A stretch of 64,000 nucleotides of DNA. Source: a virus. Lineage: Duplodnaviria > Heunggongvirae > Uroviricota > Caudoviricetes. The notes beneath the pieces were generated by a model. The model saw only the letters and a program-made list of their open reading frames with translations. It ran no database searches and was not told the DNA's origin. A program made the translations under genes and the position numbers. This document shows, in pieces, positions 12,626 to 32,440 of the stretch (positions are counted from its first letter, which is position 1; the number at the start of each line of letters is the position of its first letter). The stretch lies in IMG/VR virus record IMGVR_UViG_3300042892_004104, one strand, 5' to 3'.

Positions 12626-12649
12626 AATTTTATCACAAAGGAGAATGAT

Positions 12650-13370: not shown

Positions 13371-13376
13371 AGTCAA

Positions 13377-13451: not shown

Positions 13452-13497
13452 ACCTCTCCCTGACATACGGAGTACAATGTGATAAGTTGTATGTTTC

Positions 13498-13571
13498 AGG
13501 TCATTAGCTCAAAGGCAGAGCACTAGGTCGACATCCTAGACACAGCGGTTCGATACCGTTATGACCCACCA
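13498..13571 (+). tRNA. tRNA-Val (GAC), low certainty; loop tcgacat has C at position 33
   Basis: D arm gctc/gagc, anticodon stem ctagg/cctag, T-arm agcgg-ttcgata-ccgtt, ACCA; A1-C72 mismatch. Confidence 0.55.
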
Positions 13572-13652
13572 GCCCCAGTAGACAAATTGGCAAAGTCGTC
13601 TCTCTCAAAAGGAGAAATTTAGATGCGGGTTCGACTCCCGCCTGGGGCACCA
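13572..13652 (+). tRNA. tRNA-Leu (CAA), low certainty, 9-nt variable region; directly abuts the previous tRNA
   Basis: Acceptor gccccag/ctggggc perfect, anticodon stem tctct/ggaga with loop ctcaaaa, T-arm gcggg-ttcgact-cccgc, ACCA. Confidence 0.55.
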
Positions 13653-13702
13653 TGTTGTTTCTCTTGACACAAAATTAGTCATTATAAATACACTTAGAGT
13701 TA

Positions 13703-14245: not shown

Positions 14246-15729
14246 GCAAAAAAATAACTTGCATCAGCATTGATTTAATCAATGCCGACAAGCCTCCGGC
14301 TGCATTAGCATTTATGGCAGGAGCCTGTGAAAAGGTCAACGCAGATTATCAATGTATTAGCTTGAACTCAGTGTTTTATCATAAACTATCACAAAAAAAA
14401 TATAATGATATATATTCAAGCGTCAAAATTGGAAATATAGAAAATTTTTTACCTACTGTTGGTCCTGTTGTTCAGAAGATCATAGAACATGTAAAAAATT
14501 TCAACAGCGATTTGATCATGATAAGTGTGTTTAGCTACATGCAATATCAATTGGCAGAATTTTTCTTGCAACTTCTAAAAGAACAAATTCCCAATGTGGA
14601 AATAATTGCCGGGGGGCCAGGAATTGGGCACGAGATACACAGCATGACCAATGGCCGACGGCTACTAGAAAAAAATTTAATAGATTTTTATTGCCTAGGC
14701 GAAGGCGACGAAGTGCTGGTTAATTTTTTAAAAGGTAGTCGCTCTGAACTAGGAATAAACTCAAAAAGCAACTTTTATGAATCCTGGACCCCGCAAATCA
14801 ATGATTTAGATAAACACTATGTATTTCCTAGCTATAAAAAAATTGAGTCAGGCAACTATAAAAATTTAGAAAATAAAAATTCTACAGTGTTTAGCCTAAG
14901 CACAAGTCGAGGATGTGTAAGATCTTGCACTTTTTGTGATGTTGGTAAAACTTGGAAAAAATTTAAATTTAGAAGCGGGTCAAATGTTGTAGATGAAGTA
15001 ATAAAACATCATCAGGATATTGGTGCAGTGCATTTTACCATTGTAGATAGTTTGATCAATGGTAGTTTAAAAAGTTTTCAAGACTTTAATCTTAGAATGA
15101 TCAAAGTCAAACAACAATATCCTGGACTTAAAGATTTTAGTTATAATGGAATGTTTATTGTAAGAGATCGACACTCACACAAAGAAGATCTGTTTAAAAT
15201 TATGAAGCAGGCCGGATGCGACAGCTTGTCCATTGGGGTTGAGACGGGCAGTGATCACCTTCGAGCACAGATGAACAAAAAATTTACCAATAAAGATTTA
15301 GACTATCATTTGGAAATGTGCGACAAGTATGGTATCAGAAATAGCTTGTTTATGTTTGTTGGGTATCCAACAGAGACTGCCAAAGATTTTGAAGAGTCAG
15401 TGGCTATGTTATACAAATATCAACGGTATTTGATCAATGACACTATTATTGGTATCAACCATTCGGGCATCTTTAGTATGTTGCCTGACACCCCGTCATA
15501 CGATCACCGGCAGGAGTTGGGCATTGAAATTGTTGAAGACACCAGCAACACTGGTATTTTAAATTGGATCAATCACAATAACTTAGAATTGACTGTCAAA
15601 GAGAGAATACTAAGAGACCTAGAGTTTAGACAGCATGCACTAGATCTAAGATACCCTGTTCCGTATGCTGCTCGATACCTAGAGTATTTGAGCAAGGTAC
15701 ATCCAGAATTTGTACCTCAAAGTGATTGA
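14242..15729 (+). CDS. B12-binding-domain radical SAM enzyme (class B radical SAM)
   Basis: N-terminal cobalamin-binding-like region, SRGCVRSCTFC (CxxxCxxC), FVGYPTETAKDFEES motif. Confidence 0.75.
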   Translation: MSKKITCISIDLINADKPPAALAFMAGACEKVNADYQCISLNSVFYHKLSQKKYNDIYSSVKIGNIENFLPTVGPVVQKIIEHVKNFNSDLIMISVFSYMQYQLAEFFLQLLKEQIPNVEIIAGGPGIGHEIHSMTNGRRLLEKNLIDFYCLGEGDEVLVNFLKGSRSELGINSKSNFYESWTPQINDLDKHYVFPSYKKIESGNYKNLENKNSTVFSLSTSRGCVRSCTFCDVGKTWKKFKFRSGSNVVDEVIKHHQDIGAVHFTIVDSLINGSLKSFQDFNLRMIKVKQQYPGLKDFSYNGMFIVRDRHSHKEDLFKIMKQAGCDSLSIGVETGSDHLRAQMNKKFTNKDLDYHLEMCDKYGIRNSLFMFVGYPTETAKDFEESVAMLYKYQRYLINDTIIGINHSGIFSMLPDTPSYDHRQELGIEIVEDTSNTGILNWINHNNLELTVKERILRDLEFRQHALDLRYPVPYAARYLEYLSKVHPEFVPQSD

Positions 15730-15792
15730 TCTTGACTATTAGCAATGTAGTCATTGACTAATTGTTAGTCTAACTACAAAAGAAAGAACCAT

Positions 15793-16263
15793 ATGAAAAA
15801 AATTGATCTAGAAAAAGTCTGCGCATTTATTGAAGCTCAGTCGCCGGAAACCAAGATTTATCTGGGTTGCGATAGTGAACGTGTAAAAATAGATGGCGTA
15901 TGGCATGCTGACTATGTGTTGGCCATTGTGGTTCACATCAACGGCAACAACGGCTGCAAACTGTTTGGTGAAGTACATCGAGAACGCGACTATGACTCCA
16001 AGCCCGGCAAACCTGCCATGAGACTCATGACAGAAGTATACAAGGTCAGCGAGTTGTATCTAAAACTGGCCGAAGTACTGGATGGTCGTGATGTTGAAGT
16101 ACACCTGGATATCAATCCTGACGAAATGCATGGCTCAAGTTGTGTGATTTCACAAGCCATAGGCTACATCAAGGGCACATGCAATGTGGTTCCTTTTGTC
16201 AAGCCCGAAGCCTTTGCTGCCAGCTATGCTGCTGACCGTTTTAGGTCACTCCGCGTAGCTTGA
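15793..16263 (+). CDS. hypothetical protein (156 aa)
   Basis: ORF with AAAGAA SD-like sequence upstream. Confidence 0.6.
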   Translation: MKKIDLEKVCAFIEAQSPETKIYLGCDSERVKIDGVWHADYVLAIVVHINGNNGCKLFGEVHRERDYDSKPGKPAMRLMTEVYKVSELYLKLAEVLDGRDVEVHLDINPDEMHGSSCVISQAIGYIKGTCNVVPFVKPEAFAASYAADRFRSLRVA

Positions 16264-16270
16264 CGATTTT

Positions 16271-16344
16271 GCGTGGTTAGTTTAATGGTAAAACTTCTCG
16301 TTGCCAACGAGAGGTCAAGGGTTCGATTCCCTTACCCCGCACCA
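16271..16344 (+). tRNA. tRNA-Gly (GCC)
   Basis: Anticodon stem tctcg/cgaga with loop ttgccaa, T-arm aaggg-ttcgatt-ccctt, ACCA. Confidence 0.75.
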
Positions 16345-16352
16345 AATTATGG

Positions 16353-16408
16353 CCCAGTCCTCTGGCACATGACCTCTTTTAATGTTGTGTGTTACGACTG
16401 GGTTTTTC
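16353..16408 (+). terminator. hairpin (cccagtc ... gactggg, 7-bp stem, large loop) followed by TTTTTCT; possible terminator or processing site between tRNAs
   Basis: Read directly. Confidence 0.3.
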
Positions 16409-16413
16409 TACAA

Positions 16414-16487
16414 GCTCTTGTAGTTAAGTGGTATAACAAATCCATGGTAAGGATTAATCGACAGTTCGATTCTGTACTAGAGCACCA
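16414..16487 (+). tRNA. tRNA-Thr (GGT)
   Basis: Acceptor gctcttg/ctagagc, anticodon stem atcc/ggat with loop atggtaa, T-arm gacag-ttcgatt-ctgtc, ACCA. Confidence 0.75.
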
Positions 16488-16562
16488 GGGCCTTTGGTGA
16501 AATGGATATCATGCTGGTCTTCGAAACCAGCGGTGGGAGTTCGATCCTCTCAGGGCCCGCCA
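16488..16562 (+). tRNA. tRNA-Arg (TCG); abuts previous CCA
   Basis: Acceptor gggcctt/agggccc, anticodon stem ctggt/accag with loop cttcgaa, T-arm gggag-ttcgatc-ctctc, GCCA. Confidence 0.75.
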
Positions 16563-20981: not shown

Positions 20982-21010
20982 TTGACGATAAATCACCAAA
21001 ATGCTATAAT
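20982..21010 (+). promoter_or_regulatory. sigma70-like promoter TTGACG-17-TATAAT
   Basis: Read directly. Confidence 0.55.
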
Positions 21011-21035: not shown

Positions 21036-21293
21036 ATGTCAGCACTGAACACTTATTTGGATCGTAAAAATTCTTTTGCCAAACTGTTTGGACAAAAGGC
21101 TCTGAGCCTGCAGGTGGCTGCGGATCGTCAGAGTATTGCCAACAGCATTGATGCAGATCTCAGTCCTGAGAATTTGACCTGCGATGGTGAACTGAGCCGT
21201 AGTCAGGTGCAGACCCGCTACCGGGCCTTGACTGCCGCAGCCAAAGAGCTCAAGCAGTTGGATCCTGGTGTTAAATTTTACGAATTTGCCTAA
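21036..21293 (+). CDS. hypothetical protein (85 aa)
   Basis: AAGGAG SD 8 nt upstream of the ATG. Confidence 0.55.
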   Translation: MSALNTYLDRKNSFAKLFGQKALSLQVAADRQSIANSIDADLSPENLTCDGELSRSQVQTRYRALTAAAKELKQLDPGVKFYEFA

Positions 21294-21303
21294 GGAGAGC
21301 AAT

Positions 21304-21516
21304 ATGAACATGAGCTACTGCATGTTTCAAAACACCGCAAACGATCTGCGTCAGTGCCTGGAGGCCATGGATGCAGCCGAGACCATGGCTGAACTGGAAC
21401 TGAGCCGTGACGAAAAGCGCAGTTACGATCTCATGCGAGAATACTGCGAAAACTTCCTGAACATTGCTGAACGACTGGATGATGCTGACGCTGACGCTTT
21501 TGGAGTTGCAAAATGA
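21304..21516 (+). CDS. hypothetical protein (70 aa)
   Basis: AAGGAGAG SD. Confidence 0.55.
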   Translation: MNMSYCMFQNTANDLRQCLEAMDAAETMAELELSRDEKRSYDLMREYCENFLNIAERLDDADADAFGVAK

Positions 21517-21731
21517 ACGAACGAATTCGAGAACTACTGAAACAGGCAACTAAAGCAGTTGATCCCGAAAACCGTGTATGGGTGTTTTCTAAGGTTGACC
21601 AAGCAAAGTTCGCCGAGTTGATTGTGCGGGAATGTGCTAATATTGATTTTAGACGCGAGGTCGGGTTAACTGCTGATGATGATTACGAAATCGGCAAGGT
21701 TATAAAAGAACACTTTGGAGTCGAATCGTGA
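21513..21731 (+). CDS. small paralog family member (MNERIREL...KFAELIVREC...EHFGVES)
   Basis: Conserved termini; ATGA-overlapped start. Confidence 0.6.
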   Translation: MNERIRELLKQATKAVDPENRVWVFSKVDQAKFAELIVRECANIDFRREVGLTADDDYEIGKVIKEHFGVES

Positions 21732-21928
21732 AAGTGACCCATCCCTACACCTTGATAAAGCGGCGTATTGATGTTGTGGTCCGAGTGCCAGCCTGGGCGG
21801 TTGGAGAGATAAACAAAGGCGATCTGGTCATACGCCTGGATGCTCAAACTGTTTTGCGAGACAATGGCAGATACAAGGTGGGCGAATCCTACACCAAGTT
21901 CTGGGGCTACACAGGAGAAAATGCATGA
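21728..21928 (+). CDS. hypothetical protein (66 aa, GTG start)
   Basis: ORF between two family members. Confidence 0.45.
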   Translation: MKVTHPYTLIKRRIDVVVRVPAWAVGEINKGDLVIRLDAQTVLRDNGRYKVGESYTKFWGYTGENA

Positions 21929-22152
21929 ACAAACGAATTCAACAACTTGCCGAACAGGCTACATCTTACAATAACAGTGATGGTTGGCTTTTTGATAAAG
22001 AAAAGTTCGCCCAGTTGATTGTTCAGAAATGTATATCAGTTATTAATACTGAGGCTGCCGAAGTTCCTGCTGAAGATGAATATGAAAGAATGTGGAAGAT
22101 GGGAACGGAATTTGCTGTATATCAGATTGAAAAACATTTCGGAGTTGAATGA
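21925..22152 (+). CDS. small paralog family member
   Basis: MNKRIQQLAEQA...KFAQLIVQKC...EKHFGVE. Confidence 0.6.
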   Translation: MNKRIQQLAEQATSYNNSDGWLFDKEKFAQLIVQKCISVINTEAAEVPAEDEYERMWKMGTEFAVYQIEKHFGVE

Positions 22153-22529
22153 TGAACACACGAATTCGAGAACTTGTCGTTGAGGCTAGGAACTATGCCC
22201 TAGATGAAAAGCGAATTTATGAACGAGTGCATAACACCGAACAATGTATGGAAGAATATCGTGATGTGTATAACAAAAAGTTCGCTGAACTGATTGTGGC
22301 TGAATGTTTGGCCCAGGTTGCCCGGGTGGATGACATGTTGGAAGATGAGCCTGCACAACATGCGGCAGTGGCCTGGGTGGCCCGGTCAATTGCAGACCAT
22401 TTTGACGTTGCAAAACCACAGTCAGACTGGGATCAAGAAGCAGCTGAATTTATTGCCGCAGAGAATAAAAAGGTTGCCAGCAGATACGGATATATCCCAA
22501 AACTTCATCCATCAGAATGGCAAGACTAA
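22149..22529 (+). CDS. small paralog family member (extended)
   Basis: MMNTRIRELVVEA...KFAELIVAEC...DHFDVAKP. Confidence 0.6.
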   Translation: MMNTRIRELVVEARNYALDEKRIYERVHNTEQCMEEYRDVYNKKFAELIVAECLAQVARVDDMLEDEPAQHAAVAWVARSIADHFDVAKPQSDWDQEAAEFIAAENKKVASRYGYIPKLHPSEWQD

Positions 22530-22735
22530 TGAACACACGAATTAAAGAGTTGGCTGAACAATGCTGGGACAAGCGTCCAGAAGGCCAACTACATTTTGAC
22601 AATGAAAAGTTCGCCGAGTTGATTGTTAAGAAATGTATGGATATTGCCAAGTATCACACGCCCGACACAGAAGAATGTGAATATACATGGTTGATCCATG
22701 CCAAGATTCAAGAACATTTCGGAGTTGCGGAATGA
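22529..22735 (+). CDS. small paralog family member
   Basis: MNTRIKELAEQ...KFAELIVKKC...EHFGVAE. Confidence 0.55.
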   Translation: MNTRIKELAEQCWDKRPEGQLHFDNEKFAELIVKKCMDIAKYHTPDTEECEYTWLIHAKIQEHFGVAE

Positions 22736-22962
22736 ACCAACGAATTCGACAACTTGCTGAAAAAGCAAACATTGAGTTTACCTATGACCCAACAGAAAAA
22801 CCTGTTAGAGCATTTGCCGAGTGTTGGGAAGATGAACTTGAAAAGTTCGCTGACATGATTGTGCAGGAATGCGGTGTAGCATTGAGTCCTATGTTGCGTG
22901 ATATGATCAGCCGTGGGCAGGCTGTGGAGTTGATTAAGAAACATTTTGGAGTTGAACTATGA
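22732..22962 (+). CDS. small paralog family member
   Basis: MNQRIRQLAEKA...KFADMIVQEC...KHFGVEL. Confidence 0.55.
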   Translation: MNQRIRQLAEKANIEFTYDPTEKPVRAFAECWEDELEKFADMIVQECGVALSPMLRDMISRGQAVELIKKHFGVEL

Positions 22963-23078
22963 CACAGAACGATTGGGTATTACTAATGTGTCTAGCAATT
23001 GGATGGCTACAGGGTCTGTATATTGGATGGTTACTGTGGCGTAGACCACAATTGAAATATCACGGAGTTGCAGAATGA
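22959..23078 (+). CDS. 39-aa hydrophobic peptide ending ...YHGVAE
   Basis: ATGA-coupled at both ends; transmembrane-like core. Confidence 0.35.
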   Translation: MTQNDWVLLMCLAIGWLQGLYIGWLLWRRPQLKYHGVAE

Positions 23079-23314
23079 ACCCACGAATTCAAGAACTTTT
23101 AAAACAAGCTGGGGTCACTGACAACTGGAACAAGGCAGACTGGTACAGTATGAGTCCAGAGATGATTGAAAAATTCGCCCAGTTGATTGTGCAGGAATGT
23201 GTGGAACTGGTATCTGTTAACAGAGACCTGGCTATCGAAGATGAATGGAATGTGGATGAAGCAATGTCCACAGCAATCAATGATATTGAAGAACATTTCG
23301 GAGTTGAATCGTGA
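23075..23314 (+). CDS. small paralog family member
   Basis: MNPRIQELLKQA...KFAQLIVQEC...EHFGVES. Confidence 0.6.
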   Translation: MNPRIQELLKQAGVTDNWNKADWYSMSPEMIEKFAQLIVQECVELVSVNRDLAIEDEWNVDEAMSTAINDIEEHFGVES

Positions 23315-23478
23315 TCACACTGTTTATCTGGACTGTGGTCGGCTACGCTGGTATGAACAATAGCATCAGTACTAAAATGGACTGGCGGGCTTTGGCTCAG
23401 TTTGAGACAGTCGCGCTCTGTGAGGAGGCTGTGCGATCCATGAACCTACAGGACAGGCACCGTTGCCTGAAGACCAAA
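23311..23478 (+). CDS. 55-aa hypothetical protein (GTG start)
   Basis: Coupled GTGA and ATGA junctions. Confidence 0.35.
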
Positions 23479-23741
23479 TGAACAAACAAATTCAACAACT
23501 TGCCGAACAGGCTCATTGCTATGCTTGTGAATATGCTCGACAACCAGATTACAATCCACACAACCCTTACAATCAAGGAATGTATAAACAGCGATACGAT
23601 TCAAAGTTCGCCCAGTTGATTGTGCAGGAATGTATGGATGCAGTGGGTGATGGACCAATGCAAAGACCAGAAATTCAACGGATCAAAGCCAGGTTTGGGG
23701 TTGAGTATTACGAGCCAATTGAAAAAGCATTTGGGAGTTGA
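23478..23741 (+). CDS. small paralog family member
   Basis: MNKQIQQLAEQA...KFAQLIVQEC...ARFGVEY. Confidence 0.55.
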   Translation: MNKQIQQLAEQAHCYACEYARQPDYNPHNPYNQGMYKQRYDSKFAQLIVQECMDAVGDGPMQRPEIQRIKARFGVEYYEPIEKAFGS

Positions 23742-23744
23742 ATC

Positions 23745-24140
23745 GTGAACATAACTGTATACAGCTGGAATCTACTAAAAGAATCCTGTGAGCGTTGGTC
23801 GGTGCCCAGAGACTTTGCCGACCCCATGCTGAACTATCTGGTGTATGGATATAGTCCGGGTAGTTGTTTCTATGCGGTGCTGGCCAATGACTGGCGTGGG
23901 GCAATAGGATCCAGCCATTCCATGAACAGTGTAGAAGCCTTCAAGGCCTTGACCGGCTGGATACACAACGACTTTCCTGCCGAAGCACGTGGCAGTTACC
24001 AAGCTGTCGACCAGTGGTGTCAGCTTGATGCTGTGGTTCGACGAGCAATCCTTGAACGACAGGGACTGATCTATACCCAGCACGAAGAAGTGTTTAAAAT
24101 TCTACGGAATGAGCACACCGTGGAACCTGTGTTGTATTAA
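23745..24140 (+). CDS. hypothetical protein (131 aa, GTG start)
   Basis: ORF. Confidence 0.5.
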   Translation: MNITVYSWNLLKESCERWSVPRDFADPMLNYLVYGYSPGSCFYAVLANDWRGAIGSSHSMNSVEAFKALTGWIHNDFPAEARGSYQAVDQWCQLDAVVRRAILERQGLIYTQHEEVFKILRNEHTVEPVLY

Positions 24141-24156
24141 GCATGAGAGTTGAACC

Positions 24157-24447
24157 ATGATGCAAGATTTCGTGTATGAGCAAACTCGAGCCACTGTGAC
24201 CGACACATGGGATGACGAGATATCACAGTCTGTGATTGCAGCCGCAGTCAATGCGCCTCGAGCCAGCTACCGGATTTATTATTCCCAGGACAACCTGACC
24301 CGTAGGATTTTTGTTCATCGCGGCTGGCCCAACTGCACACCCACAGAGATTGACGCATTGTTGGGCTTGGGCTTTGTGGTGGCACAGCCTGGTGATGCAG
24401 ACAACATTCCTGATCATGCACCTGTGTTTGAAAGGCTTTTGAAATGA
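24157..24447 (+). CDS. hypothetical protein (96 aa)
   Basis: ORF. Confidence 0.5.
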   Translation: MMQDFVYEQTRATVTDTWDDEISQSVIAAAVNAPRASYRIYYSQDNLTRRIFVHRGWPNCTPTEIDALLGLGFVVAQPGDADNIPDHAPVFERLLK

Positions 24448-24659
24448 ACCAACGAATTCGAGAACTTGCTGAACAGGCTACATCAATTGTAGAAATGGTT
24501 GGTCCACAAGGTTATACAAGTTCATATGCTAACTTTGATAGAGAAAAGTTCGCCGAATTGATTGTGCGGGAATGTGCTGGCCGAGTTGATTGGATACTTG
24601 CCGAAGGTGGCCGGACACAGGGTGATTTGATTAGAGAACATTTTGGAGTTGAAGAATGA
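24444..24659 (+). CDS. small paralog family member
   Basis: MNQRIRELAEQA...KFAELIVREC...EHFGVEE. Confidence 0.6.
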   Translation: MNQRIRELAEQATSIVEMVGPQGYTSSYANFDREKFAELIVRECAGRVDWILAEGGRTQGDLIREHFGVEE

Positions 24660-24874
24660 ATACGCCCATCGTTCCTGATAATAAATTCAAGTTCTGGGCT
24701 GATCCTAGATTTGAAATTCTGGCAGAAATGGACAAACTATTGAACGGTAGCAAGATCTGGGGTGGCCAGGAATGGGTCTACCATCCCATCCATCCTGTGA
24801 AATATCAGCCTGTGGCCGAAAAGATTCGTCTAGCAATGGATGCGTTAAAAGCAGAATACGGAGTTGAAGAATGA
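24656..24874 (+). CDS. small protein ending ...EYGVEE (family-related C-terminus)
   Basis: ORF with junction motif. Confidence 0.5.
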   Translation: MNTPIVPDNKFKFWADPRFEILAEMDKLLNGSKIWGGQEWVYHPIHPVKYQPVAEKIRLAMDALKAEYGVEE

Positions 24875-25101
24875 GTGACTCCATCATGCCCGTAACTCAA
24901 TTTGCCAACAGCTTCACTGGCGTGTTGCCCATTGCCACTGTGGGCAAAGGTGTTGTCAAACAGGAAAGTTGGCAACAGACCACTTATCCCAATGGTGCCA
25001 CGGTCACCAGGGTTTATCACGCCAGTATTGAAGTGTATGACAACCGTGCAGTGGTGACCCGGCACAATGAACCAAACATCATTGACATTTTGATCAAGTA
25101 A
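24871..25101 (+). CDS. hypothetical protein (76 aa)
   Basis: ORF. Confidence 0.5.
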   Translation: MSDSIMPVTQFANSFTGVLPIATVGKGVVKQESWQQTTYPNGATVTRVYHASIEVYDNRAVVTRHNEPNIIDILIK

Positions 25102-25128
25102 TATTACAATAACTCACCGGGAGAAATC

Positions 25129-25575
25129 ATGTTTGCAGTGCTGAAATTTATCTACATCTTGTTCAAGGCGTTCAGAGACGGGCTCAATCCCAATGTCAAC
25201 AGTCTAAGACATGCACCAACTTATTTGAAATACTTTGCCAGCATTGTGTTGGCCTGTTTCTGGTGCCTGGCCTTTGGTCTTTACATTGGTGAACTCATGA
25301 CCATTGGCTACAACATGATTGGTCACATTGCCCTAATCACCATGGCATTCAGCACTGGCTATGTCATGCAAGTGTTCAGGAAAACATATAACCCTGGCCA
25401 AGTCACTGTGAGACAAGGCACTGTGGAATATCTACGCATGCCTGATCGAAGCAGTCGCTGTGATGAACTTACTGAAGAACAACGCCTGGCCAAAATTCAA
25501 GAATGGAATCAGCGCAATGTTTGGAATGATCCCAAACTGGCCAAAAAAGACAAAGAAACCTACTACGGAGCATGA
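25129..25575 (+). CDS. membrane protein (148 aa), 3 predicted transmembrane helices
   Basis: Hydrophobic segments. Confidence 0.55.
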   Translation: MFAVLKFIYILFKAFRDGLNPNVNSLRHAPTYLKYFASIVLACFWCLAFGLYIGELMTIGYNMIGHIALITMAFSTGYVMQVFRKTYNPGQVTVRQGTVEYLRMPDRSSRCDELTEEQRLAKIQEWNQRNVWNDPKLAKKDKETYYGA

Positions 25576-25679
25576 CCATGACCGTTGATGAAATTATTTC
25601 TACCATAATTATTGTAACCGTAGTGGGAGCAGTACTATGGGACATGTACAAGAAAGAAGAACATGAACCCGGAGAATAA
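25572..25679 (+). CDS. 35-aa single-TM peptide
   Basis: ATGA-coupled; hydrophobic core IISTIIIVTVVGAVLW. Confidence 0.3.
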   Translation: MTMTVDEIISTIIIVTVVGAVLWDMYKKEEHEPGE

Positions 25680-25794
25680 AGAACCAGAAAAAGATCCAGT
25701 GGACGATGTGGTTGAACACATACACATTGTGTTGCCCATTGTGGGAGCCGTCTTGGTGTTCATGCTGGCTTTTATTGCTGTTACAATGGCCTAA
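25663..25794 (+). CDS. 43-aa single-TM peptide
   Basis: Hydrophobic core VLPIVGAVLVFMLAFIAV. Confidence 0.3.
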   Translation: MNPENKEPEKDPVDDVVEHIHIVLPIVGAVLVFMLAFIAVTMA

Positions 25795-25807
25795 CACTAG
25801 GCAATAT

Positions 25808-25836
25808 TTGACTTAAAATACCTCTTCTGCTATAAT
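25808..25836 (+). promoter_or_regulatory. sigma70-like promoter TTGACT-17-TATAAT
   Basis: Read directly. Confidence 0.55.
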
Positions 25837-25867
25837 ACATGTATAGCAAAACAAAACAGGAGAGAAC

Positions 25868-26143
25868 ATGAGCATTCAAAGCATCAACACTGAGATCATC
25901 GCAGGTAATTTTACCAACGATCAACTCACCAGCATCATTGATGCTGTGAAATATGCTCGGGCTCAACTAGCCCAGAAAAACAAACGGGCCTTGACATTGC
26001 AGAGCAACGTGGAATTCACCAGTGCTAAAACTGGTCGAGTCATGCGTGGTTTTGTGCAAAAGATTGCCATCAAATATGTGACTGTAGACACAGGCGGGGG
26101 CCTGTGGCGGGTTCCTGCCAACATGCTGAAGGTAGTAGCATGA
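25868..26143 (+). CDS. hypothetical protein (91 aa)
   Basis: AGGAGAG SD. Confidence 0.55.
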   Translation: MSIQSINTEIIAGNFTNDQLTSIIDAVKYARAQLAQKNKRALTLQSNVEFTSAKTGRVMRGFVQKIAIKYVTVDTGGGLWRVPANMLKVVA

Positions 26144-26310
26144 GTCGCATTAAAGATTATTTTGCCCCTATAGAGGAACCGGACAACATGCCTTATGCCC
26201 CAGAACCAGAACCAGAACCAGACCAGGCAGAAGATCAGGGTCAACAAGTGTTTGCTCACATGATTCGCGAGCTTACACAACGTTTTCGGCCAGAACTTGA
26301 TTTTGACTAA
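26140..26310 (+). CDS. hypothetical acidic protein (56 aa)
   Basis: ATGA-coupled. Confidence 0.4.
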   Translation: MSRIKDYFAPIEEPDNMPYAPEPEPEPDQAEDQGQQVFAHMIRELTQRFRPELDFD

Positions 26311-26331
26311 AAATCACAGATCACGTATAAT
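26303..26331 (+). promoter_or_regulatory. sigma70-like promoter TTGACT-17-TATAAT
   Basis: Upstream of the MoxR-like gene. Confidence 0.55.
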
Positions 26332-26364
26332 ACAATTTTCAACCACTCCACCAAGGAAATTTCC

Positions 26365-27450
26365 ATGTCAGATACCCGCACTGTTACTTCTGCACAAGCC
26401 CGCAAGAGCCTGCTCAAAGCATTCCGCGTCCAGCGTCCGTTGTTCCTGTGGGGTCCTCCGGGTATTGGCAAAAGCGAACTGGTGGAAAATATCACCAAAG
26501 AGCTAGGTGGCCTAATGATTGATCTGCGCCTGGGCCAGATGGAACCCACCGACATTCGTGGCATTCCGTTCTACAACAAGGACATTGGCAAGATGGATTG
26601 GGCACCTCCTGTGGAATTGCCCGACGAAGAAATGGCCAAGGACTATCCCATTGTGGTCCTGTTCCTGGACGAGTTGAATTCAGCCGCACCCAGCGTTCAA
26701 AGTGCCGCATATCAGTTGATTCTGAATCGACGCATTGGCAAATATCGCCTGCCTAAAAATGTTGTTATGGTTGCCGCAGGCAACAGGGAAAGCGACAAGG
26801 GCGTTACTTACCGCATGCCTACTCCGCTGGCAAACCGTTTCTTGCACCAAGAGATGAAGGTGGATTTTGCTAGTTGGCAAGAGTGGGCTGTAACCAACAA
26901 AGTTCACAAGGACGTGGTTGGCTACTTGAGCTTTGCTAAACAGGACCTGTACGACTTTGATTCTAAGTCCAGCTCACGTGCGTTTGCTACACCGCGTACC
27001 TGGAGTTTTGTAAGCGAGCTCCTGCAAGAAGATGACAGCGACGACAACACCATGACCAACCTGATTGCAGGCACTGTGGGCGAAGGTCTTGCTGTGAAGT
27101 TCATGGCACATCGCAAGATTGCCGGACGCATGCCCAACCCTGCAGATATCTTGAGTGGCAAGGTTACCACTCTTGACGTCAAAGAAGTCAGTGCCATGTA
27201 CAGCCTGGTGATCTCCATGTGCTACGAGCTCAAGGCCGCTGTGGAGAACAAGGTGGAGGACAAAAAGTTTCAGGACATGGCCGACCACTTCCTGGGCTAC
27301 ATGATGAAAAACTTTGAAACAGAGTTGACTGTGATGGGTGCTAGAATTGCCCTTACTACTTATAACTTGCCCATGATGCCTACCAAGCTGAAAAACTTTG
27401 ACGAGTTCCATCAACGCTTTGGCAAGTACATTTTGGCTGCTAGTACCTAA
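26365..27450 (+). CDS. MoxR-family AAA+ ATPase (CobS-like)
   Basis: Walker A LWGPPGIGKSE, Walker B VVLFLDELN, sensor regions; ~360 aa as in phage CobS homologs. Confidence 0.85.
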   Translation: MSDTRTVTSAQARKSLLKAFRVQRPLFLWGPPGIGKSELVENITKELGGLMIDLRLGQMEPTDIRGIPFYNKDIGKMDWAPPVELPDEEMAKDYPIVVLFLDELNSAAPSVQSAAYQLILNRRIGKYRLPKNVVMVAAGNRESDKGVTYRMPTPLANRFLHQEMKVDFASWQEWAVTNKVHKDVVGYLSFAKQDLYDFDSKSSSRAFATPRTWSFVSELLQEDDSDDNTMTNLIAGTVGEGLAVKFMAHRKIAGRMPNPADILSGKVTTLDVKEVSAMYSLVISMCYELKAAVENKVEDKKFQDMADHFLGYMMKNFETELTVMGARIALTTYNLPMMPTKLKNFDEFHQRFGKYILAAST

Positions 27451-27456
27451 ATTGAT

Positions 27457-27489
27457 CGGGGCTGTTTAATCACAGCCCCGGTGTTTCTT
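27457..27489 (+). terminator. rho-independent terminator
   Basis: cggggctgt-ttaatc-acagccccg followed by gtgtttctt. Confidence 0.6.
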
Positions 27490-27506
27490 ATCACAAGGAC
27501 CAGAGT

Positions 27507-27749
27507 ATGGGATGGATAGTGTATACTAAAAAATCTGGCGAGATTTTGAGATATTACGATACTGAATCCAAGGCACGGTCGCAGGTGACTGGACACAATA
27601 AAAAACTATTTTGGTCAAGATTACAGTCAACCCGAATCGACTATAAAGAAGAATGGGCACATTGTGACTGGCAAGACTACGAAAATATTTTTAAGAAATA
27701 CTACGAAGTTCATAAACCCTACATGTTGCAGAGCAGCAGTTACAAATGA
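27507..27749 (+). CDS. hypothetical protein (80 aa)
   Basis: ORF. Confidence 0.5.
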   Translation: MGWIVYTKKSGEILRYYDTESKARSQVTGHNKKLFWSRLQSTRIDYKEEWAHCDWQDYENIFKKYYEVHKPYMLQSSSYK

Positions 27750-28084
27750 AATATCAAGTAACCGATATGGACCGCCGCTTCAGCCATAGCGCGAGCTTCA
27801 ACTATATGCTAGAGTTTTCCAAAAATACCTGGGGACATAGCACTGGTGTGTTGGATTTTGACCGAGCTCGTCGCTGGATGAATCGCACCTGGGGCTGGGG
27901 GCAGGATGTGGAAACTCGTACCGCTATCAAGCGTTGTAAAATGCTTAATCCTGCTGTTGCGGTACAGGATGAAGATATCAATCAGCACTGGGCATATTCG
28001 GTTGCATACAAAGACTATCGTATCTATCTTGCTAGTGAAAAAGAACTGGCATTTTTTCAACTGGCACATTCAGGCACTGAATAG
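27746..28084 (+). CDS. hypothetical protein (112 aa)
   Basis: ORF. Confidence 0.55.
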   Translation: MKYQVTDMDRRFSHSASFNYMLEFSKNTWGHSTGVLDFDRARRWMNRTWGWGQDVETRTAIKRCKMLNPAVAVQDEDINQHWAYSVAYKDYRIYLASEKELAFFQLAHSGTE

Positions 28085-28416
28085 TGGGACAGGTAACTGT
28101 AAAAAAGAATCTTGTGGTATTTCATGATCCTGCTGACTGGACAAAGATTCTAGATCAATTGACTCAGACTTATGGCAACACAATTCGCATGCGGCACATA
28201 ATGCGGCGTGAGCTAGGTTTTACTGCCCGTGACCATCAAGGACTAGAACCCTACTATGCACCAATTTCAACCGCCGCAGTAATATATCCTGGGCTAGTCT
28301 CTGTGGAAAAACGGCATCACTACAGTCCGCAGGTACACTTGGATTTTTTTACAGAGGCTGCGCACTCTTGGTTCCAGTTAAAGTACCTAAACCGTGAACG
28401 TCAGAACAATAGCTGA
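28084..28416 (+). CDS. hypothetical protein (110 aa)
   Basis: ORF; its 3' end lies in the tandem duplication. Confidence 0.55.
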   Translation: MGQVTVKKNLVVFHDPADWTKILDQLTQTYGNTIRMRHIMRRELGFTARDHQGLEPYYAPISTAAVIYPGLVSVEKRHHYSPQVHLDFFTEAAHSWFQLKYLNRERQNNS

Positions 28417-28481
28417 TTTGACCATTAATCGCTACCTAAACCGTGAACGTCAGAACAATAGCTGATTTGACCATTAATCGC
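28384..28481 (+). repeat. 49-bp perfect tandem direct repeat (2 copies) spanning the stop of 28084-28416
   Basis: tacctaaaccgtgaacgtcagaacaatagctgatttgaccattaatcgc x2 read directly. Confidence 0.9.
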
Positions 28482-28495
28482 TATTGTGCTATAAT
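28467..28495 (+). promoter_or_regulatory. sigma70-like promoter TTGACC-17-TATAAT; the -35 lies in repeat copy 2 and the -10 just beyond it
   Basis: Read directly; drives the VWA gene. Confidence 0.55.
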
Positions 28496-28520
28496 TACAC
28501 ATAAGCAACAAAGGACTCGC

Positions 28521-29798
28521 ATGACATCTACTACTGCTACAAAAGAAGACCACAAGAAGTTTGCCAACTTGCTGGGCAAAACTGATCCCAAAATTGATCG
28601 AGAAGTACGTGAGCTTTTGATCACTGCCCGTGTGGGCTTGCTGTTGAAAGCCAGTTTCTTTGGCAACTTGGCCACTAGATTGAAACTGGTCAATGCCGAC
28701 GAATGGTGCAGTACCGCCGCAACAGACGGCAGAAACTTCTATTACAACAGCCGTTTCATCAAACTGTTGCGTCCCAAAGAAATTGAATTCTTGTTTGGCC
28801 ACGAAGTCTTGCATTGTGTATATGATCACTTTGGCCGTAGGGGTGATAGAGATCCTCAACTGTTTAACATTGCCAATGACTTTTGCGTTAATGCAGACCT
28901 AATCAAACACAAAGTAGGTGAAAAGATCACGTCAGTGCCTTGTTTGTATGATCCCAAGTATGATGGCATGAGCTCCGAAGAAATCTACGATATCTTGTAT
29001 GAAAAAGCAGACAAGATTGACATTGGCAAATTGCTGGATCAAATGATCGACGAGCACCTGGATGGTGAAGGCGACAGCGACAGTGACGACGATCAAGATG
29101 GCAAAGGCAAAGGTCGTCCCAAACTCACTGCCGAAGAACGTCAAGCCATCAAGGATGAGATCAAGGAAGCCATGCTGGCAGCGGCTGCCACAGTGGACGG
29201 AGCAGGCAACTTGCCCGCAGGTGTCAAGCGACTGATCCAGGAGCTCACCGAGCCACAAATGAACTGGCGTGAACTGTTGCGTATGCAATTGGAGAGCACT
29301 ATCAAAAGTGACTACACCTGGATGCGAGCAAGCCGTAAAGGCTGGCACATGGATGCAGTCATGCCTGGCATGAAACTGGATCCCATGATTGATATTGCTG
29401 TGGCTCTGGATGCATCTGGCAGTATTAGCGAAACCATGCTGAAAGACTTCTTGGGTGAGATTCAAGGCATCATGGAATCGTTCCCAGCATACCGTATTCA
29501 TGTGGTCACATTTGATACCGAAGCATACAACCCTGTGCAGTATGACAGTGAAAACTTAGATGACATCTGCGATTACGAAATCAAGGGTGGTGGTGGCACA
29601 GACTTTGAATGTATCTTCAACTACCTGAAAGAGAACGAGATTGAACCCAAGCGCCTGGTAGTGTTCACAGACGGCTACCCGTTTGGTTCATGGGGTGATG
29701 AGAACTACGCAGACACTGTGTGGATCTTGCATGGCACTACAACCATTGTGCCACCTTGGGGACAGCATGCCTACTACGATGAGGAGAAAAACAAATGA
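28521..29798 (+). CDS. VWA-domain protein with N-terminal HExxH metallopeptidase-like domain (CobT-like or MoxR-associated)
   Basis: HEVLH; MIDAS motif DASGS; C-terminal FTDGYP. Confidence 0.8.
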   Translation: MTSTTATKEDHKKFANLLGKTDPKIDREVRELLITARVGLLLKASFFGNLATRLKLVNADEWCSTAATDGRNFYYNSRFIKLLRPKEIEFLFGHEVLHCVYDHFGRRGDRDPQLFNIANDFCVNADLIKHKVGEKITSVPCLYDPKYDGMSSEEIYDILYEKADKIDIGKLLDQMIDEHLDGEGDSDSDDDQDGKGKGRPKLTAEERQAIKDEIKEAMLAAAATVDGAGNLPAGVKRLIQELTEPQMNWRELLRMQLESTIKSDYTWMRASRKGWHMDAVMPGMKLDPMIDIAVALDASGSISETMLKDFLGEIQGIMESFPAYRIHVVTFDTEAYNPVQYDSENLDDICDYEIKGGGGTDFECIFNYLKENEIEPKRLVVFTDGYPFGSWGDENYADTVWILHGTTTIVPPWGQHAYYDEEKNK

Positions 29799-30223
29799 TT
29801 GTTAGACTAGAGCAAGATGCCAACGGCGATTTGATTCTGCCACTCAGCGACGAACTGTTGCAGTCAGTTGGTTGGCAAATTGGTGACACTGTTGTGTGGA
29901 CTGATAACAAAGATGGTTCCTGGACCATGAGCAAGAAGCCCAAGACCAGGATTGTGCTGGTTGATGCACTGGTATCATATCGCATGCGTTATGCTGTGGA
30001 ACTGGCAGAAGATTCACCGGAAGAGTGGGCCAGAGACACTGTGACCATGGAACAGGCTGTAGAGTTTAGCCAGGAGTGCCTGGGCGAGCAGATTGTGTCA
30101 CACAGAGTGATTACTGAGGATGAATTTTTACAACAGTTTGACAAGGACAACGGTTATCTTGCAGACTGGCCCGCAGACAAAAAGTTTGACTCAGCACTGA
30201 CCCGGCTGGAGATCACAAAGTGA
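29795..30223 (+). CDS. hypothetical protein (142 aa)
   Basis: ORF. Confidence 0.55.
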   Translation: MIVRLEQDANGDLILPLSDELLQSVGWQIGDTVVWTDNKDGSWTMSKKPKTRIVLVDALVSYRMRYAVELAEDSPEEWARDTVTMEQAVEFSQECLGEQIVSHRVITEDEFLQQFDKDNGYLADWPADKKFDSALTRLEITK

Positions 30224-30495
30224 ACGAACGAATTCAACTACTGATTGAGCAGGCCACTACCCGCATTGATCCCACGGCTCATGACGGAGCGTGTTGGGAC
30301 TTTGATAAAGAAAAGTTCGCCGAGTTGATTGTAGCAGAATGTATTGCACAATGCGAGCAAGTTGCTACAGATGCTGATGCTATGACTAATAGTAAATTTG
30401 TAACTGATGCAGGTCGTATGCTTCACGAAGGTATGTGGGGTGGCGCCAAGAATTGTACCGCCCAGATTCAAACACATTTTGGAGTAGAAGAATGA
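30220..30495 (+). CDS. small paralog family member (GTG start)
   Basis: MNERIQLLIEQA...KFAELIVAEC...THFGVEE. Confidence 0.55.
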   Translation: MNERIQLLIEQATTRIDPTAHDGACWDFDKEKFAELIVAECIAQCEQVATDADAMTNSKFVTDAGRMLHEGMWGGAKNCTAQIQTHFGVEE

Positions 30496-30644
30496 CTCCG
30501 GCTGAGATTATTTTATTAGTAATTCTTTCTCCGTTGTATTTGGGGATAACAGTAGCAGGAGTAGGAGTTGTAATAGTCTCGTGGATATGTGTATTCGCCC
30601 TGCTGGGTAATCAGAAAGCACGAGACTTTATACGGAGATTTTAA
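30492..30644 (+). CDS. 50-aa transmembrane protein
   Basis: ATGA-coupled; two hydrophobic segments. Confidence 0.4.
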   Translation: MTPAEIILLVILSPLYLGITVAGVGVVIVSWICVFALLGNQKARDFIRRF

Positions 30645-30646
30645 GA

Positions 30647-30862
30647 ATGAACGAACGAATTCTAAAACTTGGTGCAGAGGCCGGACTGTATGTGGATCTC
30701 GACGGTGCGCCGTGGCCGCGAGCCATGTCAGCCGAAGAATCTGAAGCAGCCTATAAAAAGTTCGCCGAGTTGATTGTTCAGGATGTGTTAAACGAAGTGC
30801 TACAGGCAATAGATGATGGTATGGACGTCTACTACACAGTGGCAGATAAATTTCGGAGTTGA
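30647..30862 (+). CDS. small paralog family member
   Basis: MNERILKLGAEA...KFAELIVQD. Confidence 0.55.
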   Translation: MNERILKLGAEAGLYVDLDGAPWPRAMSAEESEAAYKKFAELIVQDVLNEVLQAIDDGMDVYYTVADKFRS

Positions 30863-30865
30863 AGA

Positions 30866-31033
30866 ATGAAGGAAATCATAGCATTGATCACTGCGTATTT
30901 TACAGCATTCATAGTTACTTACGGGCATGCCTATCAGCAGGTAGATTCTACCTTTGCCGGAGAGAATGCTGTTGGAGCATTCGTTTCATCACTCTTCTGG
31001 CCACTCTATTGGTCTGTGCAGGTGTGGAAATAG
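30866..31033 (+). CDS. 55-aa membrane protein (ATG-initiated; preferred over the track's TTG-initiated 30859-31176 ORF)
   Basis: ATG lies 9 nt after GGAG of the junction motif; hydrophobic. Confidence 0.4.
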   Translation: MKEIIALITAYFTAFIVTYGHAYQQVDSTFAGENAVGAFVSSLFWPLYWSVQVWK

Positions 31034-31052
31034 TTGTTAATGGAGTTGAACT

Positions 31053-31286
31053 ATGTCGACTGATTGTAACTCACACGAATTTCTATGGAAGGCAGATCGC
31101 GCCATTCCTATGTGGAGTGGAGAATGGACTCCGCCAGAAGGTTCAAGTATGGCTAGAGGATATGCTCATGAGATAACCAATGAATGGAGACAGTATTGGA
31201 TTGCTCAGAATGCTAAAGATGGTTGGAAACAGGTAGCAAGACAGATACAAGATAGCGTTAATAGACATTTTGGAGTTGAATCATGA
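31053..31286 (+). CDS. small protein ending ...RHFGVES
   Basis: ORF with family-like C-terminus. Confidence 0.5.
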   Translation: MSTDCNSHEFLWKADRAIPMWSGEWTPPEGSSMARGYAHEITNEWRQYWIAQNAKDGWKQVARQIQDSVNRHFGVES

Positions 31287-31368
31287 TTGAACTATTGGTC
31301 CTTGTGTGTGTAATTGGTCCCACTGTGGTTGTTCACTACTTGGGCAAGTAATATTTTGGAGTTGAAGA

Positions 31369-31545
31369 ATGATTAGACTTTGGTTGGTATTTTTTGTTTC
31401 GGTTGCTGTGATACATTTTGCCATTGCGGCCTGGCGAAAGATAGACGGAAAAGAACGCTGGTCCTTGACAAAATCTCTAGGATACAGTATAATTGTTTCA
31501 CTGCTAACAGTAATGCTGATGACAGCAATTGTGGTAATTTTTTAA
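31369..31545 (+). CDS. 58-aa two-TM membrane protein
   Basis: Preceded by an intergenic copy of the TTTTGGAGTTGAAGAATGA motif. Confidence 0.4.
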   Translation: MIRLWLVFFVSVAVIHFAIAAWRKIDGKERWSLTKSLGYSIIVSLLTVMLMTAIVVIF

Positions 31546-31553
31546 GGAACTGT

Positions 31554-31643
31554 ATGTTTTCTGAAGTGGTTGGACGCCTGGCGTATGTTGCGCTGGGTAT
31601 TGTGATTGGTATCAATCTTTTTCTTTTTTTTGGAGTTATCTAA
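31554..31643 (+). CDS. 29-aa hydrophobic peptide ending ...FFGVI
   Basis: Coupled to the 31643 start. Confidence 0.3.
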   Translation: MFSEVVGRLAYVALGIVIGINLFLFFGVI

Positions 31644-32440
31644 TGAATCGTGTTATTAAACTTTCTATCGTAGCCGCGGCTGTGGCTCTTACTAGTGCTT
31701 GCACTCGCATTGAAACCGGCGAGGTCGGTGTGCGTGTGGGCTTTGACAAACAGGTAAAATCTGGCGAACTGTTGCCAGGCTCGTTCAATCAAACCTTGAT
31801 TGGTGAAGTGCTCACATTCCCTATCAAGGATGTCAATGTAGTTCTGGACAACATGACTCCTGTGGCCAAAGACAACAGCACCATGAAAGAGGTGGATGCC
31901 GTGGTTGTTTATAACATCAACCCACAAAGTGTTGCAGAGTTGTACAGTACCAAGAACAAGAGCTTTCATGCTGAGTTCAAGGGCGATACCTATGTGATGT
32001 ACAACTACATTGTACAGAATGCTCGTAACGCCATCTACAAGGCTGCTCGCAAGTACGAGGCCCTGGACATGGCAGATGCTCGTGGTGACATGGAAACCTT
32101 TATCAAGGAAGAAATTGTTCGTAATCTTACCGAAGAAAAACTAGACAGTAGCATCACTATCAGTCAGGTGTTGATTCGTAATATTGTGCCAGCCGACACT
32201 GTGGTTGAAAGCGCCAATGCATTGGTTCGCAGTAAAAACGAACTCAAGCAGAAGGAAGTTGAAGTCAAGACCGCTGAAGCTGAAAGCCGTCGTATGGCAG
32301 CATTGGCCAACAACTCAGGTGCAAGCATTGCGTTCATGCAGGCACAGGCCATGTTGAACATTTCGGAAGGTATCAAGAACGGTCAAGTGCAGACCATTGT
32401 TGTTCCCTCAAACTTCAACGCACTCATGATGAACAAGTAA
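31643..32440 (+). CDS. SPFH/band-7 (prohibitin/HflKC-like) domain lipoprotein
   Basis: Lipobox-type signal (…ALTSAC), SPFH-like core, coiled-coil C-terminus (KQKEVEVKTAEAESRRMAAL). Confidence 0.7.
   Translation: MNRVIKLSIVAAAVALTSACTRIETGEVGVRVGFDKQVKSGELLPGSFNQTLIGEVLTFPIKDVNVVLDNMTPVAKDNSTMKEVDAVVVYNINPQSVAELYSTKNKSFHAEFKGDTYVMYNYIVQNARNAIYKAARKYEALDMADARGDMETFIKEEIVRNLTEEKLDSSITISQVLIRNIVPADTVVESANALVRSKNELKQKEVEVKTAEAESRRMAALANNSGASIAFMQAQAMLNISEGIKNGQVQTIVVPSNFNALMMNK

Follow-up and report, generated by a model that had tools for sequence, protein, structure and literature searches.

A start-associated junction module in small-gene arrays of uncultivated phages and its probable double role in translational coupling and cassette shuffling

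The 64,000-nt stretch of DNA analysed here (referred to below as the window; IMG/VR virus record IMGVR_UViG_3300042892_004104, Duplodnaviria; Heunggongvirae; Uroviricota; Caudoviricetes) is part of an uncultivated large phage and contains two arrays of small genes whose junctions are marked by a recurrent 15-nt sequence, the module. This sequence is constrained at the nucleotide level, is strand-specific, is associated with start codons and is portable to unrelated genes, and the joints that distinguish closely related strains lie in its copies. Its function is probably twofold, coupling the translation of adjacent genes through a ribosome-binding site with overlapping stop and start codons, and offering a short stretch of homology at which crossovers shuffle cassettes. 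Both in the window and in hundreds of uncultivated phages from freshwater, the module forms the 3′ end of a mosaic protein family whose anchors are MNERIxELAEQA, KFAELIVxEC, and HFGVEE. Judging from its geometry, the module would provide a ready-made ribosome-binding site and a stop-start overlap, so that any gene placed downstream would be translated in step with the upstream one. Since the same string recurs at many junctions, it could also serve as a short-homology site, and recombination between copies would then insert, delete or swap whole cassettes and leave their neighbours unharmed. The available homology would reach ∼45 nt where a family gene lies downstream, and repeated exchange together with selection on the ribosome-binding site may be what keeps the module near-identical in phages that are otherwise unalignable.

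The motif GGAGTTGAAnnATGA is present in the window as 16 full and two partial copies, every one on the + strand, a number that agrees fairly with the approximately 20 repeats given in a preliminary description of this DNA. A scan with the consensus GGAGTTGAAGAATGA, allowing up to three mismatches, returned 16 matches on the + strand at 21502-24874 and 30481-31372 and two further, unrelated matches elsewhere in the window, and this window total of 18 was reached in none of 100 dinucleotide shuffles (mean 2.36, maximum 9). Eleven copies of exact GGAGTTGA were counted on the + strand, and gene junctions account for 10 of them. When the sequence was read manually against the list of open reading frames (ORFs), 18 of the 24 junctions in the regions 21.3-25.1 kb and 29.8-31.65 kb were found to carry the motif (16 full and two partial copies), which makes the earlier statement that it sits at nearly every junction too strong; those at 21925, 22529, 23478, 24444, 30220, and 31556 are devoid of it. 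The array itself is real, as described, and begins at ∼21.5 kb and not at 22137. Genes of the window outside the arrays do not use the module; their upstream regions were inspected with a quick gene caller, which gives spurious ORFs and served solely for this purpose.

In the module, laid out as GGAG-TTGAAnn-ATGA, a Shine-Dalgarno core is followed at a fixed distance by a start codon and, overlapping it, a TGA stop. GGAG is separated from the start by 7 nt, as opposed to the 8-9 nt first reported, and the overlap of stop and start is seen as either ATGA or TGATG. TGA triplets are found at positions 6-8 and 13-15, in different frames, so that ORFs entering the module in two of the three frames terminate inside it. 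Accordingly, two copies in the window are read in the other frame and stop at the internal TGA (23734, ..AFGS*; 30855, ..KFRS*), while those at 24146, 31042, and 31358 are non-coding; the last of these confirms the earlier observation of a copy following a TAA stop, at 31358-31372, to which 24146 and 31042 can be added as further non-coding cases.

For a wider comparison, 80 IMG/VR loci carrying family members were fetched, providing 305 member ORFs, up to 14 per 12 kb. An all-against-all megablast found at least 300 bp at 90% identity or more in only 17 pairs, mostly duplicates, indicating that the loci are otherwise unrelated; as a source of additional breakpoints the same comparison was uninformative beyond three ends near the motif. 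The 3′ end of the family is nearly invariant despite this, reading CAT TTY GGA GTT GAA GAA TGA. Codon use was assessed in 268 distinct genes, with the non-anchor codons of the same genes as background: the Gly codon of the tail is GGA in 95% (26% in the background) and the Val codon GTT in 93% (40%), and the Arg of the N-terminal anchor is encoded by CGA in 88% (27%). The His-Phe pair preceding the module is conserved at the protein level, the wobble base of the Phe codon being free (TTC 145, TTT 110). The last residue of the tail is also free (E, L, S, P, Q, R or K), as would be expected if only the A of the ATG matters at this position.

Within the 72 non-redundant loci (724 kb), exact GGAGTTGAA was found 225 times on the strand of the family genes and never on the opposite strand, and 202 of these copies (∼90%) have a start codon (ATG, GTG or TTG) at +11; the 7-nt spacing is common to the ..EE-TGA and the ..E-TGATG/TAATG forms. 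GGAG-7nt-ATG sites in the same loci comprise 171 with the TTGAAnn spacer and 143 others with mostly one-off spacers, so that the module is more than the generic ribosome-binding site of these phages. An exact 29-mer spanning the junction, TTYGGAGTTGAAGAATGAACGAACGAATT, was detected in at least 120 stretches of viral DNA, whose contigs range from 4 to 350 kb. The constraint thus acts on nucleotides, as the preliminary description had proposed: codons are frozen beyond background, and the string is retained in a second reading frame, at non-coding sites and at the ends of unrelated proteins.

The proposed tie to start codons is likewise borne out by the motif scan of relatives, and the 3′ ends that have no start codon are degenerate. 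Among family 3′ ends lacking a start at +11 (n = 13), GGA is retained in 10, GTT in six and GAA in six, compared with 212, 198, and 186, respectively, of the 216 coupled ends (Fisher p = 0.004, 9e-5, and 0.001), which is the degeneracy predicted by selection on a ribosome-binding site. A promoter scan found no candidate at any motif copy, and the junctions have no terminator-like site either. Promoters at 20982 (20982-21010, +; near-perfect, 11/12) and 25082 bracket the first array, and with neither promoter nor terminator at its junctions the array is probably one operon, within which stop-start coupling would matter. Folding of the RNA of 24600-24720 gave a stability no greater than that of shuffled sequences (z = -0.5), so the junction is unstructured, and its invariance leaves no covariation on offer. 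The two promoters belong to a set of seven near-perfect sigma-70-type sequences (11-12/12, 17-nt spacer) at 20643, 20982, 25082, 25808, 26303, 28467, and 31465 (+), all situated just 5′ of gene starts and suggestive of early transcription units served by the host polymerase; the total count of promoter-like sequences is not above that of shuffles, and it is these seven top matches that stand out. The array proteins are probably expressed early, to judge from the sigma-70-type promoters.

Portability was evaluated on 288 copies (no more than one mismatch to GGAGTTGAA), of which ∼214 close a family gene, 14 have the ..RS* reading frame, and 21 lie in non-coding sequence. Approximately 80% of family members carry the module as their own 3′ end and ∼31% have it upstream, and the genes downstream of it are non-family in most cases; it is therefore carried mostly at the 3′ ends of a single protein family and is not the ribosome-binding site of particular downstream genes. 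In the window, the family genes at 21925, 23478, 24444, and 30220, which follow non-family genes, have no module in front of them. Fifty copies are not preceded by the CATTTY of the family, and these have no conservation 5′ of GGAG, which places the beginning of the shared unit at GGAG. They are found at the ends of unrelated proteins (..LIGVEE, ..TLGVEE, ..IIGVEE, ..EYGVEE, ..AEDGVES) and also directly after TAA stops. The GVEx tail of these ∼50 non-family proteins is plainly a by-product, and to this extent the idea that the conserved GVEE is a consequence of the initiation site holds true; in the bulk of copies, the module is one family's own 3′ end. The A that follows the ATG means that the next protein begins with M and then N, K, T, S, I or R, and both the GVEx tails and the A-initial second codons of downstream genes would largely be by-products of the module. 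As for the portable cassette suggested earlier, occurrence after unrelated genes speaks for it, whereas a role as ribosome-binding site does not by itself explain the conservation, the central anchor of the family being equally frozen. The finding is more general than could be seen from the window sequence on its own: first and foremost, the module is one of the three anchors of a mosaic family.

Comparison with near-identical strains places recombination joints in the module. The contigs L003 and L109 are 99.98% identical to the window from 23300 rightwards, that is, from the first G of a motif copy, and to the left of this position they encode an unrelated 119-aa protein that ends in ..AEDGVES*, an end encoded by the same GGAGTTGAATCGTGA. 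L095 has an extra 95-aa family gene at the 31272 copy, with a direct motif copy on either side. In L103, L105, and L106, which come from NCBI, JGI, and ENA, what follows the 31272 copy is the gene that in the window comes after the copy at 24860. In L104 the gene behind the 30481 copy is preceded by a relative of the 22529 gene, the partner copy being that at 22721; the swaps thus involve motif copies 6-8 kb apart. L106 has a second breakpoint at 30850, where a different family gene precedes the 30855 copy and ends in frame (KYFGVEE*, compared with ..KFRS* in the window). Other joints lie at the ATGAAC of the N-terminal anchor (23478 and 30647, in L088 and L103), in the central anchor (L111, which has another N cassette and is 100% identical to the window from 23603 on) and, in L096 as well as L103 and L105, at the end of an unrelated gene at 32628. 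Five of the nine independent joints are in motif copies and eight in some anchor; under random placement, the P values for this are ∼1e-6 to 4e-4 (motif) and 5e-9 to 4e-5 (any anchor). These five strain-level breakpoints bear out the suggestion that the motif is a crossover point for gene shuffling. At each motif joint the motif is present in both parents, and direct copies lie on both sides of the L095 insertion, which argues for homology-guided exchange.

Exchange at the anchors is also apparent within the family. Among family pairs whose N cassettes are at least 80% identical, 3,593 have C cassettes below 35% identity and 96 share both, and the reverse class, with the C cassette shared and the N cassette not, comprises 643 pairs; these counts, from a set biased by the way in which it was collected, indicate that the cassettes assort independently. 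L088 contains a family gene from which the N-terminal cassette has been deleted between the similar strings AACTTGCCGA and AAGTTCGCCGA (MNERIK|NFAELIV). At 2456-3082 of the same contig the array goes on with a 208-aa non-family protein (MNKTYLVEELFEDIPGD...) and other genes not found in the window, so that array content varies among near-identical phages.

Several points weigh against the combined coupling and crossover role. Relative to gene boundaries, as distinct from random positions, the joints show no excess at the motif, since five of the eight boundary joints are at the motif and 16 of the 24 junctions carry a full copy, and selection for intact genes could therefore yield part of the pattern. 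The class of uncoupled 3′ ends has just 13 members, and decay of the motif could itself abolish the start. The central KFAELIV anchor, equally codon-frozen, has no start codon: its codons are AAG in 84% (26% in the background), GCC in 84% (21%), GAG in 88% (19%), and TTG in 88% (27%). The ribosome-binding role alone is therefore insufficient, and something besides translation initiation keeps the anchors identical. An internal start at a GTG of KFAELIV was ruled out, as the Val codon varies freely (GTG 100, GTT 87, GTA 27, GTC 21). Finally, the comparison sequences are all metagenome assemblies, and both proposed roles of the module, in translation and in recombination, are inferred from sequence.

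A bolder form of the proposal is also conceivable, and we advance it only tentatively, as rather less than probable. The three frozen anchors might constitute a built-in, recombinase-independent, integron-like shuffling system, in which cassettes would bring their own stop, ribosome-binding site and start, and in which near-identity across unrelated phages would mean a common exchange “socket” kept by selection on exchangeability. Such a system could diversify and exchange a hypervariable two-loop small protein, possibly with an anti-defence or host-takeover function, and capture unrelated small genes in freshwater phages that differ greatly in genome size. Compared with integron cassettes proper, the junction has no inverted-repeat structure and no attC-sized spacer, the genes abutting or overlapping; an integrase was not searched for.

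It could alternatively be supposed that the module is an optimised ribosome-binding and coupling site and nothing else, breakpoints being found there merely because recombinants survive at gene boundaries. Extended pairing with the 16S tail might contribute, since GGAGUUGA matches the canonical GGAGGUGA, as given by the 3′ end of E. coli 16S rRNA, at seven of eight positions. This supposition accommodates the fixed 7-nt spacing, the start codon in 90% of copies, the relaxation of copies without one, the non-coding TAA-GGAGTTGAAGAATG copies and the proportion of breakpoints at motif junctions, which matches the share of such junctions among all. It is nevertheless unlikely, because the central anchor is equally frozen without a start and is itself a crossover site (L111 and the mosaic counts), because the motif is present in both partners at every motif-junction event and the L095 insertion lies between two direct copies, and because elsewhere in these phages GGAG is combined with many different spacers, and the module is not used by genes of the window that lie outside the arrays.

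That HFGVEE is simply a functional C-terminal peptide, its nucleotide identity due to codon bias and ancestry and the odd copies being decaying gene remnants, is considered very unlikely. The predominance of the module as the family's own 3′ end (∼80% versus ∼31% upstream), the conservation of His and Phe as residues with a free Phe wobble, the remnant-like CATTTY still present on 23 non-family copies and the AlphaFold model, confident up to residue 70, all fit a constraint on the protein. They do not account for GGA and GTT being so far above background (95% versus 26% and 93% versus 40%), nor for the fifty copies that are dissimilar 5′ of GGAG, including those of unrelated GVEE proteins and those after TAA. 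A young family would not have variable cassettes that defy alignment, and a start at +11 in 90% of copies, relaxation where it is missing and a last residue that is free are features of a nucleotide signal.

Equally little credence, or slightly less, is given to the possibility that the junction RNA (GGAGUUGAAGAAUGAACGAACGAAUU) is an operator or cleavage site, bound by a phage or host factor such as a RegA-like repressor or a RegB-like nuclease cutting GGAG. Conservation does exceed what pairing with 16S rRNA requires, extending into the spacer and the first five codons, and the lack of significant RNA structure at the junction (z = -0.5) would suit a single-stranded protein-binding site; the same question has been raised for the SAS motif of mycobacteriophages (PMC3203893). 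No candidate factor was identified, one would have to be shared by phages (contigs of 4 to 350 kb) that have the motif and little else in common, and both the frozen central anchor and the breakpoints would be left unexplained. The notion that the joints are chimeras produced by metagenome assemblers at a short repeat can be practically discarded, for although all variant contigs are metagenomic and the joins lie in a repeated string, this string (15-30 nt) would not reach the length of the final k-mers that common assemblers use, NCBI, JGI, and ENA each independently provide the 31272/24860 join, the L003 contig is listed for two samples, and the motif as such occurs not only in the window but in at least 120 other viral stretches.

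The first array (21513-24659, +) consists of family genes at 21513-21731, 21925-22152, 22149-22529, 22529-22735, 22732-22962, 23075-23314, 23478-23741, and 24444-24659, with unrelated small genes interleaved. Its first module copy, GGAGTTGCAAAATGA (21502-21516), closes the ORF 21268-21516 (..AFGVAK*) and opens the family gene at 21513, which is in turn closed by the variant GGAGTCGAATCGTGA (21717-21731; HFGVES*) with a GTG start at 21728. The copy GGAGTTGAATGATGA (22141-22155) ends HFGVE* and is of the TGATG form, GGAG still being 7 nt from the ATG. It is followed by GGAGTTGCGGAATGA (22721-22735), the crossover partner of copy 30481 in L104, GGAGTTGAACTATGA (22948-22962; HFGVEL*), and GGAGTTGCAGAATGA (23064-23078), which forms the 3′ end of a non-family hydrophobic, probably membrane protein of 39 aa (22959-23078; ..YHGVAE*). 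The L003/L109 joint is in GGAGTTGAATCGTGA (23300-23314). The out-of-frame copy at 23734-23748 (..AFGS*) has a GTG start at 23745, and the degenerate non-coding copy AGAGTTGAACCATGA (24146-24160) lies behind a TAA stop, gene 24157 starting within it. Two consensus modules come next, one at 24645-24659 (HFGVEE*) and one at 24860-24874 that closes the non-family gene 24656-24874 (..AEYGVEE*) and is the partner of copy 31272 in L103, L105, and L106.

The second array (30220-30862, +) comprises the family genes 30220-30495 and 30647-30862, the latter with a frameshifted 3′ end, and is followed by small hydrophobic ORFs up to 31645. The L104 breakpoint is in GGAGTAGAAGAATGA (30481-30495), the partial copy GGAGATTTTAAGAATGA (30634-30650) precedes the family gene at 30647, and the consensus module at 30855-30869, read in the other frame (..KFRS*), coincides with the L106 breakpoint. 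A non-coding copy, GGAGTTGAACTATG (31042-31056), lies behind a TAG stop at the start of gene 31053, and GGAGTTGAATCATGA (31272-31286) closes this non-family gene (31053-31286; RHFGVES*) and is the site of the L095 insertion and of the L103/L105/L106 swap. The non-coding consensus copy at 31358-31372 is immediately 3′ of a TAA stop, with gene 31369 starting there, and the partial copy GGAGTTATCTAATGA (31632-31646) precedes a Band_7 gene (31643). The very small hydrophobic ORFs of 30492-31645 (+; 22-58 aa, probably membrane proteins), amid the second array, each have a module copy.

Two family genes have altered anchors. The C-terminal anchor of 22149-22529 (+) is mutated (HFDVAK, GACGTTGCAAAA) and its stop is gone, the product being ∼40 residues longer, an illustration of the outcome of stop loss; 23478-23741 (+) has two tandem C-terminal anchors (..ARFGVEYYEPIEKAFGS*), and an extra G in the second causes the ORF to end at the internal TGA of the module. 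The central anchor of this gene, KFAQLIVQEC (23598-23627, +), is where the L111 joint lies. In the central anchors (21603-21632, 22604-22633, 30310-30340, and others), TTCGCCGAGTTGATTGT resembles the junction sequence TTCGGAGTTGAAGAATG, TTCG..GAGTTGA being common to both.

The ten small family genes of the window are paralogues of 68-126 aa that share three conserved blocks, MNxRIxELAEQA, KFAELIVxEC, and HFGVE[E/S/L], with two unalignable segments between them, and the family overall consists of unnamed mosaic proteins of ∼70 aa. Among 8,000 scored candidates, 2,484 metagenomic relatives were obtained at E ≤ 0.001, in a homologue set biased toward the cassettes of the query, and 62 of the best 120 relatives have the HFGVEE end. 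The ten paralogues gave no match above the cut-off in Pfam and none in PHROGs. Among isolated phages, no relative was found with the family consensus protein (tblastn), with the DNA of 21-32 kb or with a 59-nt junction consensus, and neither HFGVEE nor KFAELIV was found mentioned in the literature searched. In a set of species-representative genomes the family was seen only on short contigs binned into freshwater metagenome-assembled genomes of several phyla, which permits no host call. An AlphaFold model of the 24444 product (pLDDT 90.7) has the order helix, beta-hairpin, helix, helix, with the variable segments mapping to the hairpin and to the loop preceding the last helix. A profile search of the PDB with an array protein gave a designed repeat protein as best match (E = 0.016), Foldseek detected no solved structural relative in the PDB (E ≥ 0.12), and its matches in BFVD were solely to uncharacterised proteins of uncultured phages, none of these providing a functional lead.

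The same sequence as that of the window is found on contigs of up to 190 kb, and the MoxR-like ATPase of the window is 51% identical to the protein of PA5oct-type jumbo phages. This AAA ATPase is paired with a DUF2201/vWA protein at 26365-27450 and 28443-29798 (+), and L003 has a diverged copy of the vWA gene directly upstream of the shared array segment. Clusters at 40-16562 (+) contain 29 tRNA genes; among them are a tRNA-Gly(tcc), which decodes GGA, and a tRNA-Arg(tcg), which decodes CGA, the codon at which the Arg of the N-terminal anchor is frozen. A long gene cluster at 43520-57576 (-) includes genes for radical-SAM proteins and a Nol-like carbamoyltransferase and may belong to a pathway of modification or biosynthesis.

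Among known systems, the PeSL (promoter-early stem-loop) cassettes of T4-type phages are intergenic and combine a sigma-70 promoter with a terminator stem-loop (Arbiol et al., 2010, PMC2839356; Comeau et al., 2014, PMC4122927). As in the arrays described here, short regulatory repeats lie between small non-essential genes in plastic regions, newly landed genes gain expression signals, and the end-points of indels and replacements between close relatives are in the repeats (here at 23300, 30481, 30850, and 31272, the last with two events). The module differs in having neither promoter nor stem-loop, in its putative action at the level of translation, in overlapping coding sequence, in its length of 15 nt and in its occurrence beyond one phage lineage; a PeSL-type promoter/terminator reading was ruled out by the negative scan of the junctions. 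The SAS motif of Cluster K mycobacteriophages is a 13-bp sequence, GGGATAGGAGCCC, with 11-19 copies per genome and a function that is unproven (Pope et al., 2011, PMC3203893), and about half of its copies have an upstream inverted repeat (ESAS; PMC3203893). Both sequences are asymmetric, contain a Shine-Dalgarno core a few bp 5′ of start codons, are in one orientation and precede genes of different families, and both are conserved above the need for 16S pairing, SAS being located in the non-structural part of the genome. With the present consensus, GGAGTTGAAGAATGA, it has only the GGAG core in common; SAS is confined to one phage cluster, has been reported neither to encode the end of a protein family nor to coincide with recombination breakpoints, and its ESAS inverted repeat is without counterpart at the module.

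Intragenic shuffling mediated by conserved motifs offers a further parallel. In T-even adhesins, the His boxes of gp37 mediate shuffling of this kind. For gp38, this role is assigned to glycine-rich conserved motifs (PMC3157838). In these adhesins, short conserved blocks alternate with hypervariable segments, which are reassorted by exchange at the blocks, paralleling the KFAELIV anchor and its two cassettes, while the adhesin motifs are intragenic in virion proteins and the products here are of ∼70 aa, with one anchor spanning the gene boundary together with the next ribosome-binding site. ATGA and TGATG overlaps are ordinary translational coupling in phage and bacterial operons, and GGAG placed 7 nt before a start that overlaps the upstream stop (ATGA or TGATG/TAATG) conforms to it. 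Ordinary junctions of this kind are not known to keep their sequence between genes or across unrelated phages, unlike the module, in which the spacer and flanks are nearly invariant. By analogy, the module would fit the class of conserved regulatory linkers that mediate modular shuffling, and it belongs to neither PeSL nor SAS.

The module bears upon the long-running question of whether phage mosaicism arises at conserved linkers or by random joining followed by selection, as a 15-nt translation-level linker common to hundreds of otherwise unalignable uncultivated phages, with cassette moves visible between strains that are 99.9% identical. It accounts for an oddity of annotation, in which unrelated proteins end in GVEE and the next ones open with M followed by N, K, T, S or I, and it provides a short exact DNA tag for locating plastic arrays in metagenomes. 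It also points to a very large, rapidly reshuffled family of small proteins that are candidates for host-interaction functions.

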